Shown one piece after another: positions 57,601 to 60,600 of a DNA stretch of 64,000 nucleotides. Location: NCBI RefSeq assembly GCF_041248615.1, contig NZ_CP158426.1, one strand, 5' to 3'. The stretch comes from Escherichia coli. GTDB lineage: Bacteria; Pseudomonadota; Gammaproteobacteria; Enterobacterales; Enterobacteriaceae. The position numbers are program-made. How positions within the stretch are numbered: the stretch's first letter is position 1; each line of letters starts with the position of its first letter.

Positions 57601-60600
57601 TTGAATAAGTGTGTTCCGGAGTAATCCAGAGCGCATGCTGCTTTACGTCTTTTTCAAGCCATGTTGGTTAAGCAAAAAGAGGTAGAAATAATTTCCTGAG
57701 AAATTAACTCAACATTCTGAAATGGCCAGTTTTCTGAAATTACCAGAAGACCGAATACATTCATGCCTGAAGAATGGATTAGAAGAAACGAGACGGAAAT
57801 AGATCTATTTATCCCTGCGGAAATAATTTCTGATGAAATTGTTTTCGGCTATTAAAAAGGTCAAACCGGCTGAGTGAATTTTATCCAGTTACAAACAAGT
57901 ATTACCTCCAGTGTATTGGTAGCTGTTAAGCCAGGGGCGGTAGCATACCTGAAGAGAATAGGATCACATCACCAAATGGCAAGAAGTGGATTTGAAGTCC
58001 AGAAAGTCACCGTAGAGGCATTATTTCTACGAGAAATACGAACACGCTTTGGTAAGTTCCGTCTGGGATATCTGTGGGCGATTCTCGAACCCTCTGCGCA
58101 TTTGCTGATACTGTTGGGCATTTTTGGTTACATTATGCACCGCACGATGCCAGACATCTCATTCCCGGTGTTTTTACTTAATGGCCTGATTCCCTTTTTT
58201 ATCTTTAGCAGTATCAGCAATCGTTCTGTAGGTGCTATTGAAGCGAATCAGGGGCTGTTTAATTATCGACCAGTAAAACCCATCGATACGATCATTGCGC
58301 GTGCATTGCTTGAGACACTGATTTACGTTGCTGTTTATATATTGCTTATGCTTATCGTCTGGATGGCAGGCGAATATTTCGAAATAACAAACTTTTTACA
58401 ACTTGTGCTCACCTGGAGTCTGCTGATCATTCTTTCATGTGGCGTCGGCTTAATATTCATGGTCGTTGGCAAAACCTTCCCTGAAATGCAAAAGGTCCTG
58501 CCGATACTGCTTAAGCCGCTGTATTTCATCTCCTGCATCATGTTCCCTTTACACTCGATTCCAAAGCAATACTGGTCATATCTACTCTGGAACCCATTAG
58601 TGCATGTCGTAGAGTTAAGCCGCGAGGCAGTTATGCCTGGCTATATCAGCGAAGGCGTGAGTCTGAACTACCTTGCAATGTTCACTCTGGTCACCCTGTT
58701 CATCGGTCTGGCGTTATACCGAACGCGTGAAGAGGCAATGCTGACATCATGATTAAAATTGAAAATTTGACGAAGTCATATCGCACGCCAGCGGGTCGAC
58801 ATTATGTCTTTAAGAATTTAAATATTGAAATCCCTTCAGGAAAAAGTGTTGCCTTTATTGGTCGCAACGGAGCGGGTAAATCAACGTTACTGAGAATGAT
58901 TGGCGGCATTGACCGCCCCGACAGTGGAAAGATCATCACTAATAAAACAATATCATGGCCAGTCGGCCTCGCAGGTGGATTTCAGGGAAGTTTAACCGGA
59001 CGCGAAAACGTAAAATTTGTTGCCCGGTTATACGCGAAGCAAGAAGAACTAAAAGAGAAAATTGAGTTTGTCGAAGAATTTGCCGAACTCGGTAAGTACT
59101 TCGATATGCCGATTAAAACTTACTCATCTGGTATGCGATCGCGTTTAGGCTTTGGTTTAAGCATGGCATTTAAGTTTGATTATTATATCGTCGATGAAGT
59201 AACCGCAGTCGGTGATGCCAGGTTTAAAGAAAAATGCGCTCAATTGTTTAAAGAAAGGCATAAAGAGTCTAGTTTTTTAATGGTTTCACATAGTTTGAAT
59301 TCATTGAAAGAGTTTTGTGATGTGGCCATTGTGTTTAAGGATGATAATGCGGTTGGTTTTTATGAGGATGTTCATGAGGGGATAAAATCATACCAAATAA
59401 ATGAAAATACAACTATTAAGATTTAGGCCATTACGTGAAGATATAATTTACACTCCCCAAGTTAATACATATAAGTAATTATATTAATAAATATTTATAA
59501 AAGGCATCTAAAGAATAGATGCTTAGAGCCACTTAAACTGCTGTATTGTCTAAATGTAAGAAATAACGAAATGGGTTTTTGGTGATTACTGTACTCAAAA
59601 GGAGTCAAGAATATGAAATCAATATTGTATTATTTAGAGCCACGTACAGAATTAAATGACAAATTATTTCGCTATGCAACACTACGCTCTTATCTACTAC
59701 CTGAAATTGATGGCCTTAGGATAGCTGATAAGAGCCTCGATTTTAAAATGATCGTTTCTCGTACGATTTATAATAAAGCAAAACAAAATAATTTAAAAAT
59801 GGAGGGTATCGATTTTATAATTATTGATGAAGATGTATTTGAAAAGAACTCATATCTGAAGAATATTAATGTTAGTAATGAATTATATCATGGGAATTTA
59901 AATATAAAGGCTAATGAAGAACTAAAATCAATCATATCTGCTTGCCTTCCTGTTGATTATAAACCAGATATTATTATTTCATATGAAAGCCCAGCTCCAT
60001 TTTTTAAAGAGATATTTCCATCATCTTTACTTTTAAACGCTATGTTTGGAATTTTTTCAAGGGCACCATTTCCTGCATATGGGTTATTAGACCCATGTGG
60101 TTTGTATGAATATTCATATCAATATAAATATGCTGATAAAATTCGTGCTGAGGAGATTTCAGAAGAAGAAAAGGAAGTTATAAAATTACTCAGAAGACAA
60201 AGTTCAAGAGCACTTGCTGCTTATCATCCTCTCAAGAAATATATTTCATCATTATATGAAAAATATGATCGACTTGTTGTATTAGCATGTCAAGTGGATA
60301 ACTATTTTTCTTATAATAGTTGTACCAATTATCCATCACAATATGCGATGGTGGAAGATGTTCTTTCTCAAGTTCCATCAAATATTGGTGTTATAGTTAC
60401 AGAACATGGCTATAAAAGACAAATAAGTGACGAGCAAATTGAGTCTTTAAATGAAAAATACAGTAATTTTATATATTTTTCTAAAAAAGATGTATTCACA
60501 CCAAGTCAATTTATTCTTCCTTATGTAGATGGTGCTTTATCAGTCTCGTCATCGATTGGTTATCAGGCTGCTTTATGGCAGATTCCATATTTTGGTCTTG

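Follow-up and report, generated by a model that had tools for sequence, protein, structure and literature searches.

Sequence evidence for an RfaH-loading ops element in the kpsM leader of a rare Escherichia coli group 2 capsule locus

The closest described counterparts of the locus analyzed here are the kps clusters of the K5 and K1 types and of strain CFT073. In region 3 of K5/K1 loci (Stevens et al. 1997, reviewed in PMC8960920), an ops element lies 28 bp upstream of kpsM, the promoter PR3, which has a −10 sequence and lacks a −35, is located 741 bp before the start of kpsM, and read-through into region 2 is RfaH dependent (PMC8960920). RfaH ChIP-seq of CFT073 identified GGCGGTAGCATA, located 40 nt before c3698/kpsM (listed at −40 in Data set S2A), as an RfaH-bound leader site, and c3698 to c3695 are marked as RfaH bound (Hustmyer et al. 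2022, PMC9765446). Deletion of rfaH in that strain led to a collapse of RNA polymerase occupancy 5.4 kb downstream, with an RfaH-dependent travelling ratio for kps of ∼0.1 to 0.34 or lower (PMC9765446). Identical ops 12-mers within coding regions (sucA and clbB) load no RfaH (PMC9765446), which supports the argument that an ops needs to be situated outside of translated sequence. The rfaQ/waaQ, rfb/wzx, and hlyCABD systems likewise possess the core GGCGGTAG on the non-template strand of an untranslated leader; however, their elements end in TG (GGCGGTAGCGTG or CATG) and lie 60 to 634 nt from the first gene, whereas the kps ops ends in TA and the distance here is 40 nt. TG at positions 11 and 12 is common to the validated K-12 RfaH targets (PMC5995543).

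The kps locus and its ops element

The window (the whole 64-kb stretch of DNA that was analyzed) contains the following features around the junction of regions 3 and 2.

57909–57947, + strand: JUMPStart element, Rfam RF01707, model positions 1–38 of 38, 39 nt
57936–57947, + strand: ops element, 12-mer GGCGGTAGCATA with the core 8-mer at 57936–57943, aligning to the CFT073 RfaH-bound site
57976–58752, + strand: kpsM CDS, 258 aa plus stop, ABC-2 permease of the capsule exporter, RefSeq WP_000124294.1
58749–59426, + strand: kpsT CDS, 225 aa, ABC ATPase, with its start overlapping the kpsM stop (ATGA)
59613–63122, + strand: first region 2 gene, 1,169 aa, ∼30% GC, the presumed downstream target of RfaH-dependent read-through

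As judged from its sequence, kpsM is the group 2 capsule ABC-2 permease gene in region 3 of the kps cluster. The protein matched Pfam ABC2_membrane (PF01061, E 1.8e-15) and PDB entry 8tsh_C (E 1.5e-61, over residues 34–288 of the longer ORF described below). Its score of 189 bits against the NCBIfam KpsM equivalog NF050053.1 was under the 300-bit cut-off, so that RefSeq names it just "ABC transporter permease." No + strand intrinsic terminator was predicted between kpsT and the gene at 59613. The two region 2 genes are followed on the opposite strand by kpsS, kpsC, kdsB (in the kpsU position), kpsD, kpsE, and kpsF, and a gsp cluster is located upstream, as at other group 2 loci. Region 2 is of a rare two-gene form, and its 1,169-aa protein carries a Bcs3-like ribosyltransferase module, with residues 424–786 matching the ribosyltransferase region of Hib Bcs3.

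The core 8-mer GGCGGTAG was found where it had been predicted, at 57936–57943 on the + strand, which is the coding (non-template) strand of kpsM and kpsT, and it is the sole copy in the 64 kb. The predicted spacing of 33 bp was also correct: the kpsM ATG starts 33 nt past the final 8-mer base, with 32 nt intervening. With the complete 12-mer, 28 nt separate the end of ops from the ATG and 40 nt separate its first base from the ATG, in agreement with the same counts published in PMC8960920 and PMC9765446. GGCGGTAGCATA matches the consensus GGCGGTAGCGTG at 10 of 12 positions, differing at position 10 (G to A) and position 12 (G to A); C3, G4, G5, T6, A7, G8, and T11 are retained, and position 12 is an A where the consensus has the pause-promoting G. 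The K1 (EV36) allele possesses GGCGGTAGCGTA, with a G at position 10 where the window has an A. No ops was found near PR1. The rfaH gene, a core gene of E. coli, is itself located outside of the window.

The ops is embedded in a JUMPStart match of 53.6 bits, where the RF01707 gathering score is 35, with an E value of 8.7e-11 locally and of 1.9e-9 when the entire window is considered, and 37 of the 39 columns are invariant among seven divergent kps alleles. A 44-nt alignment with the JUMPStart of an O-antigen cluster leader showed 93% identity. From JUMPStart through the ATG, 70 nt (57909–57978) are 100% identical in CFT073, ATCC 25922, NCTC86, and one O25b:H4 strain, and the coordinates of the CFT073 site map by alignment to window positions 57936–57947 and 57976. 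On the basis of the family match and of the identity with the validated CFT073 site, we take this site as a genuine ops. The RfaH-dependent antitermination proposed in the original prediction is thus supported as the probable role of the element, which is an already known signal; the interpretation holds and brings no new biology. The sequence, the family match, the CFT073 identity, the start-codon comparison, and the annotation come from this analysis, RfaH loading and its effect come from the literature, and we infer the position of PR3 in this strain and ribosome recruitment at kpsM. Both the CFT073 locus and the window have the ops after a long AT-rich leader; they differ in that K2 capsule genes lie downstream in CFT073, whereas the window has the rare two-gene region 2, and their intergenic sequences diverge upstream of ∼57000.

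The kpsM start codon and alternative readings

Whether the ops is untranslated depends on where kpsM begins, and three further features bear on this point.

57871–57873, + strand: in-frame TGA closing the kpsM frame upstream, conserved in 7/7 alleles
57874–57975, + strand: spurious 34-codon N-terminal extension with a GTG start, judged non-coding
57960–57963, + strand: weak Shine-Dalgarno (SD)-like AGGA, 12 nt before the ATG, anti-SD pairing of −4.0 kcal/mol

The ORF running from the ATG at 57976–57978 to 58752 equals RefSeq WP_000124294.1. The original prediction had chosen this codon, for a protein of 258 aa, and had proposed a comparison with other kpsM starts; the RefSeq start of this genome and those of six other alleles, including CFT073 and K1, agree with it (777 nt in all), and the homology to the PDB structure begins there. 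Annotation and allele comparison thereby support an ops located in the untranslated leader, upstream of 57976. The same prediction also described a six-frame ORF from a misleading in-frame ATG at 57874. The position of that ORF start was right, but the codon is GTG, and no in-frame ATG occurs between the TGA at 57871–57873 and position 57976. Codon 57874 is GTG in this allele only, with GTA, CTA (in CFT073), ACG, or ATA in the six others. An exact 41-mer containing the GTG was present in 15 (at most 35) of ∼1,716 kps-positive genomes. According to these allele sequences, a GTA-to-GTG change that sets this allele apart created the longer six-frame ORF, which is artefactual.

Two other lines of evidence were of less use. 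The anti-SD pairing of −4.0 kcal/mol at the ATG was equalled by 23% of random positions and did not discriminate from the −3.4 kcal/mol at GTG 57874, so SD energy was dropped as evidence for the start site; the weak kpsM SD is consistent with the report that RfaH targets lack canonical SD elements (PMC5995543). Codon-phase conservation yielded p values of 1.4e-7 with all seven alleles and 0.22 without the divergent allele L006; this evidence is weak and driven by that allele alone.

Initiation of KpsM upstream, at GTG 57874 (292 aa) or at TTG 57916 (278 aa), would make the ops intragenic, a reading that we regard as very improbable. The frame is open for 102 nt from 57874 in 7/7 alleles, this allele does have a GTG start there, the in-frame TTG inside JUMPStart is conserved, the accepted ATG has a weak SD itself, and automated pipelines have called such products (the 292-aa form on 1 contig, compared with at least 1000 contigs with the 258-aa form, and the 278-aa form on 9+7 contigs). 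The open frame is nevertheless accounted for by the near-invariance of the regulatory sequence (88/99 columns), and 57874 is a non-start codon in the six other alleles. TTG 57916 has almost no SD pairing (−0.2 kcal/mol) and makes up the 5′ stem arm of JUMPStart. Alignment with the KpsM structure (8tsh_C) sets in at residue 34 of the long ORF (Q34-M35), adjoining Met35, leaving the extension unmatched, and none of the 12 GTG-bearing genomes listed has an annotated RefSeq feature over the extension. Moreover, ops 12-mers in translated regions load no RfaH, yet kps expression needs RfaH (PMC9765446). We consider it similarly improbable that translation in this lineage starts at the allele-specific GTG, runs through ops, and thereby makes RfaH loading weaker. 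As for the possibility that the GGCGGTAG match is due to chance and has no regulatory role, the 8-mer by itself does not reach significance (1.45 copies expected per window, with at least one copy in 78 of 100 shuffles); however, it sits in a full 39-nt JUMPStart match (E ∼1e-10), is invariant in divergent alleles, and is the same as the RfaH-bound CFT073 site. The JUMPStart match as a whole, together with its invariance, exceeds chance, and the chance explanation is effectively refuted.

A different proposal is that the conserved final ∼100 nt of the leader work chiefly as RNA, besides or instead of recruiting RfaH at the DNA level, either by masking the ribosome-binding site with a JUMPStart hairpin or another leader structure or as a target for the sRNA RyhB; we judge this unlikely. 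In the Rfam model, JUMPStart is an RNA whose stem has 5 bp, and all five pairs are standard in the window (U-G, U-A, G-C, G-C, U-G), with a single one-sided change (U-A to U-G) among the alleles. The 30 nt upstream of JUMPStart (57879–57908) are near-invariant across alleles, which ops alone does not explain, and a gfp fusion to the kpsM 5′ UTR is reported to be activated in a RyhB-dependent manner (PMC11988350). Against this proposal, the RyhB pairing is a prediction in that study and involves nt 32–75 of a 150-nt UTR, corresponding to ∼57857–57900 and thus off the ops, and RfaH loading at the DNA element was shown directly by ChIP in CFT073 (PMC9765446). Thermodynamic folding of 57871–58020 gave a stability not above that of shuffles (z +0.75), and folding of the isolated JUMPStart did not recover the model hairpin and was no better than shuffles (z +0.85); the RNA-switch reading was dropped because no stable structure was obtained for either segment. 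The assignment of 57936–57947 as the JUMPStart/ops site of the region 3 operon in this group 2 capsule locus, with kpsM beginning at ATG 57976, is in our view very probably correct.

PR3 and the long kpsM leader

Upstream of JUMPStart, the leader contains a putative promoter sequence and a set of palindromes.

57225–57230, + strand: candidate −10 hexamer TATATC of PR3, placed from the literature distance
57235–57975, + strand: long untranslated kpsMT leader, ∼741 nt, AT-rich, 33–37% GC
57177, 57312, 57573, 57689, and 57824: copies of an 18-bp palindrome, spacing 116–261 bp

Counting back the published 741 bp from 57976 leads to 57235, 5 nt past the TATATC hexamer, so both K5/K1 distances (28 and 741 bp) are reproduced in the window and the ops lies ∼700 nt downstream of the literature-placed PR3. 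The hexamer is invariant in seven alleles and is 741, 742, 738, and 741 nt from the ATG in the long-leader alleles. A sigma-70 consensus scan missed the expected PR3 position and yielded fewer promoter-like sites than shuffled sequences, so PR3 was placed by the literature distance only. An alternative transcription unit start, from CFT073 RNA-seq (PMC9765446), maps to window position 57132 and corresponds to an 846-nt leader; the literature estimates of the transcription start site thus disagree (741 versus 846 nt). A search for Rfam families in the kpsMT leader revealed none besides JUMPStart.

The palindrome found five times in the long leader region is TAATTTC-N4-GAAATTA. Among the seven alleles, its arms are conserved, with 60 of the 70 columns invariant, whereas the 4-nt centres are free to vary, with 5 of the 20 columns invariant. 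No copy with one mismatch or fewer occurs elsewhere in the 64 kb, the copies are dispersed, Tandem Repeats Finder having reported no leader array, and no description of them was found in the literature searched. A search of this genome's PR1 region showed the palindrome to be absent there, which rules out an operator shared by PR1 and PR3. K1-type alleles have lost a 116-nt unit by recombination between two palindrome copies, and the K1 (EV36) leader is ∼626 nt compared to ∼741 nt in the window. Published H-NS footprints, with coordinates taken from the review PMC8960920, would cover the first copy only. Tentatively, the leader may be more than a passive spacer, with the palindromes serving as sites for a dimeric regulator, as H-NS/StpA nucleation sites, or as RNA hairpins; any of these three roles, if true, could set the number of polymerases that reach the ops.

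Proposed mechanism and significance

In the mechanism that we propose, RNA polymerase would start at PR3, ∼0.74 to 0.85 kb upstream, and transcribe the long AT-rich leader. At 57936–57947, the exposed non-template ops bases would recruit RfaH, which would remain on the polymerase, keep NusG off, and counter pausing, Rho-dependent termination, and elongation blocks imposed by H-NS/StpA. Transcription could thereby pass kpsM and kpsT and enter region 2, which is serotype specific and has a GC content of 30%. Ribosome loading at the weak-SD kpsM start 28 nt downstream is probably aided by RfaH as well, and from this start (ATG 57976) the 258-aa protein would be translated.

The practical value for the window is annotation: the kpsM start is fixed at 57976, and the occasional 278- or 292-aa calls that swallow the regulatory site are explained. 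It is through RfaH-dependent read-through from region 3 that the genes for group 2 capsule synthesis can be expressed, and the capsule ranks among the major virulence factors of extraintestinal E. coli. Our analysis suggests that a rare capsule locus is wired to the same RfaH switch that was validated in CFT073.

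The kpsM upstream gap and its JUMPStart element

The kpsM control region lies within the 1,150 bp that separate yghD/gspM, the last gene for type II secretion (end at 56825), from the first gene for capsule export. Positions 56826-58752 are 100% identical to E. coli NRZ14408 (NZ_LT599825.1), with window position 1 corresponding to record position 864001. The annotated gene order is typical of group 2 capsule loci.

3' of the gap, + strand: kpsM, kpsT and two serotype-specific genes (RefSeq annotation)
Beyond region 2, opposite strand: kpsS, kpsC, kdsB (in the kpsU position), kpsD, kpsE and kpsF (annotation)

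RefSeq gives the prototype KpsM no more specific name than "ABC transporter permease" because E. coli KpsM (57976-58752) scores 189 bits against the NCBIfam equivalog "capsule polysaccharide transporter KpsM" (NF050053.1), whose cut-off is 300. Elsewhere in the window, the RefSeq annotation of the source genome shows, within 37303-44905, a nest of IS3-family elements in which ISEc31 interrupts IS1397 fragments (37303-39846); an Rfam isrC match lies at 38423-38545, and sslE, beside the nest, is annotated as frameshifted (40359-44905). An IS1B copy is located between mdaB and qseC (5455-6152), and dkgA and yqhD flank an Rfam ES173 sRNA match on the - strand (20606-20669; 99 bits, gathering score 90).

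As originally predicted, GGCGGTAG was found at 57936-57943 on the + strand, where it is the sole copy in the 64 kb. The predicted 33-bp spacing to kpsM was likewise confirmed, with ATG 57976 beginning 33 nt past the last base of the 8-mer; counted otherwise, 28 nt separate the 12-nt ops (57936-57947) from the ATG, and the ATG follows the first base of ops by 40 nt. The latter counts equal the two printed figures, "28 bp" (PMC8960920) and "-40" (PMC9765446, Data set S2A). Alone, GGCGGTAG is at chance level (∼1.45 copies expected per window; at least one copy in 78 of 100 shuffles). The element is beyond chance because a complete JUMPStart (57909-57947), with the 8-mer as its 3' part, matched Rfam RF01707 end to end with 53.6 bits (gathering score 35; E-value 8.7e-11 in a local search and 1.9e-9 over the whole window). 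Among seven kps alleles (the window, CFT073, K1 EV36 and L003 to L006 from other genomes, L006 being NZ_CP097726.1), no variation was seen in 37 of 39 JUMPStart columns, compared to 62% of the kpsM coding columns. Over 44 nt, the element shares 93% identity with a JUMPStart that precedes an O-antigen cluster of a different strain (H40/L007).

The 12-mer departs from the consensus GGCGGTAGCGTG at positions 10 and 12, both A. Mutation of G4, G5, A7 or G8 abolishes recruitment and T11 is the pause base (PMC5995543); the window sequence retains all of these along with T6 and the C3:G8 pair. Position 10 is A in the window, CFT073 and L004 and G in K1 and the three others, and position 12 is A in all seven alleles. 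Validated K-12 targets share TG at positions 11-12 (PMC5995543), so that kps, with A12, is a natural exception that still binds RfaH.

The start codon of kpsM

The original prediction placed the kpsM start at ATG 57976, giving 258 residues, and dismissed an upstream in-frame ATG at 57874. Position 57874 is indeed the start of the six-frame ORF, but the codon there is GTG; it directly follows an in-frame TGA (57871-57873), and no in-frame ATG lies between that TGA and 57976. The identity of this codon is the only point on which the earlier observation was wrong. RefSeq annotates kpsM at 57976-58752 (WP_000124294.1, 258 aa), and the suggested comparison with other kpsM genes agreed, with 777 nt annotated in the six other alleles, including K1 EV36, at 65 to 98% coding identity to the window. 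In those alleles the GTG is replaced by GTA (K1 EV36, L004, L006), CTA (CFT073), ACG (L003) or ATA (L005), none of which is a start codon. The exact 41-mer with GTG occurs in 15 genomes, at most 35, of ∼1,716 carrying this leader, and no feature is annotated at its position in the 12 matching genomes listed. In a public protein collection, 1,000 contigs or more carry the 258-aa KpsM and one carries a 292-aa form; a 278-aa form (e.g., EFN8867374.1, 9+7 contigs) starts at a conserved TTG (57916) inside JUMPStart. Both longer forms are gene-caller artefacts. In the alignment to KpsM from the solved KpsMT-KpsE complex (8tsh_C, E 1.5e-61), the first aligned residue of the long ORF is 34, adjoining Met35.

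The upstream frame is open over 102 nt in all alleles, and 88 of 99 columns (89%) in this stretch are invariant versus 445 of 674 (66%) in the remaining leader (p 1.2e-6), a level of nucleotide conservation that regulatory sequence would produce. With all seven alleles, third codon positions in the extension were much less variable than those in the gene (p 1.4e-7), an effect that disappeared without the divergent L006 (p 0.22); this test is only suggestive. Shine-Dalgarno pairing is weak at every candidate (ATG -4.0, GTG -3.4 and TTG -0.2 kcal/mol), with -4.0 kcal/mol or better reached at 23% of random positions. This weakness fits the reported lack of canonical Shine-Dalgarno elements in RfaH targets (PMC5995543) and does not choose between the starts. 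Setting aside the GTG/ATG slip, the original interpretation is supported. Compared with the window, L006 is 92% identical over the last 102 nt of the leader but only 65% identical over kpsM (L006 2363-3139, window 57976-58752), where divergence sets in at about codon 9; this boundary of conservation or recombination is sharp and falls just within the gene.

Organization of the leader

An 18-bp palindrome, TAATTTC-N4-GAAATTA, occurs five times in the kpsM leader.

57177-57194: copy 1
57312-57329: copy 2
57573-57590: copy 3
57689-57706: copy 4
57824-57841: copy 5

Across the seven alleles, 60 of 70 arm columns are invariant and 5 of 20 in the 4-nt centers (p 6e-7, arms versus centers), against a leader background of 445/674. 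No further copies with one mismatch or fewer were found elsewhere in the window, none was found near PR1, and these repeats are not described in the literature searched. Copy 5 can be extended into an RNA hairpin of 13 bp (57818-57847, -13.5 kcal/mol, z -5.6). K1-type alleles (K1 EV36, L006) lack exactly 116 nt between copies 3 and 4 (∼57575-57690), a unit that also appears to be missing from most E. coli matches (86% coverage in two pieces), thereby defining long (∼741 nt) and short (∼625 nt) leader forms.

The region 3 promoter PR3, with a -10 element and no -35, is reported 741 bp before kpsM (PMC8960920). This distance puts +1 near 57235, just past an invariant TATATC (57225-57230, candidate -10) that gives distances of 741, 742, 738 and 741 nt in the long-leader alleles; the transcription-unit start suggested by CFT073 RNA-seq instead maps to the equivalent of 57132. 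If +1 does lie at 57235, the H-NS footprints reported in the literature (-135 to -21 and +141 to +219) would include only the first palindrome copy.

Thermodynamic folding supported neither structured RNA in 57871-58020 nor a JUMPStart hairpin. RyhB was reported in 2025 to activate a kpsM-leader reporter via pairing predicted within its final 150 nt (PMC11988350); it could provide a layer atop RfaH recruitment rather than a substitute for it. The 30 nt directly 5' of JUMPStart (57879-57908, TTTTATCCAGTTACAAACAAGTATTACCTCCAG) show almost no variation, even among the most divergent alleles, a degree of conservation for which ops itself does not account; they contain an anti-Shine-Dalgarno-like CCTCC, and RyhB pairing is predicted in their neighborhood (PMC11988350).

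Predicted RfaH recruitment and read-through into region 2

Region 2 comprises just two genes, both annotated as hypothetical.

59613-63122, + strand: first gene, 1,169 aa, hypothetical
18416-19405 of locus L001, cut by the window end: second gene, hypothetical

Neither gene has a Pfam match, and the pair occurs in 21 of 5,426 complete E. coli genomes, O25b:H4-ST131 strains among them. Residues 424-786 of the 1,169-aa protein resemble the ribosyltransferase region of Haemophilus influenzae type b Bcs3 (E 3.9e-28), and its architecture resembles that of KrkA, the single polymerase of K13/K20/K23 ribose-Kdo capsules (PMC12887879). These similarities suggest that the capsule contains ribofuranose.

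Leader (33-37%) and region 2 (∼30%) are low in GC, making them typical H-NS and Rho substrates. In the proposed pathway, polymerase would start at PR3 and run into the leader, RfaH would bind the exposed non-template strand at ops and take the place of NusG, and the RfaH-bearing polymerase would pass kpsM, kpsT and a 186-nt gap before entering region 2. No + strand intrinsic terminator was predicted in that gap. The 28-nt ops-start distance and weak Shine-Dalgarno pairing would also fit RfaH-assisted ribosome loading at kpsM. No ops is present near PR1, in line with an RfaH-independent region 1.

CFT073, ATCC 25922, NCTC86 and one O25b:H4 strain match the 70 nt spanning JUMPStart and the ATG (57909-57978) at 100% identity. 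RfaH was mapped in CFT073 by ChIP-seq (Hustmyer et al., PMC9765446), where the c3698 (kpsM) entry gives 3529321-3529332 for ops GGCGGTAGCATA and 3529292 for the first gene; by alignment, these coordinates correspond to 57936-57947 and 57976. This ops was RfaH-bound in the wild type as well as after loss of both hns and stpA, whose products coat the kps operon, and in the rfaH deletion RNA polymerase occupancy 5.4 kb past ops fell to ∼0.1-0.34 or less of wild type (PMC9765446). Identical 12-mers within the sucA and clbB coding regions did not load RfaH (PMC9765446), which supports the original argument against an ops within a translated region. The predicted RfaH-dependent antitermination is supported by RfaH binding to the same sequence and by the loss of polymerase without rfaH in CFT073; the feature is a textbook one, already shown experimentally on identical sequence.
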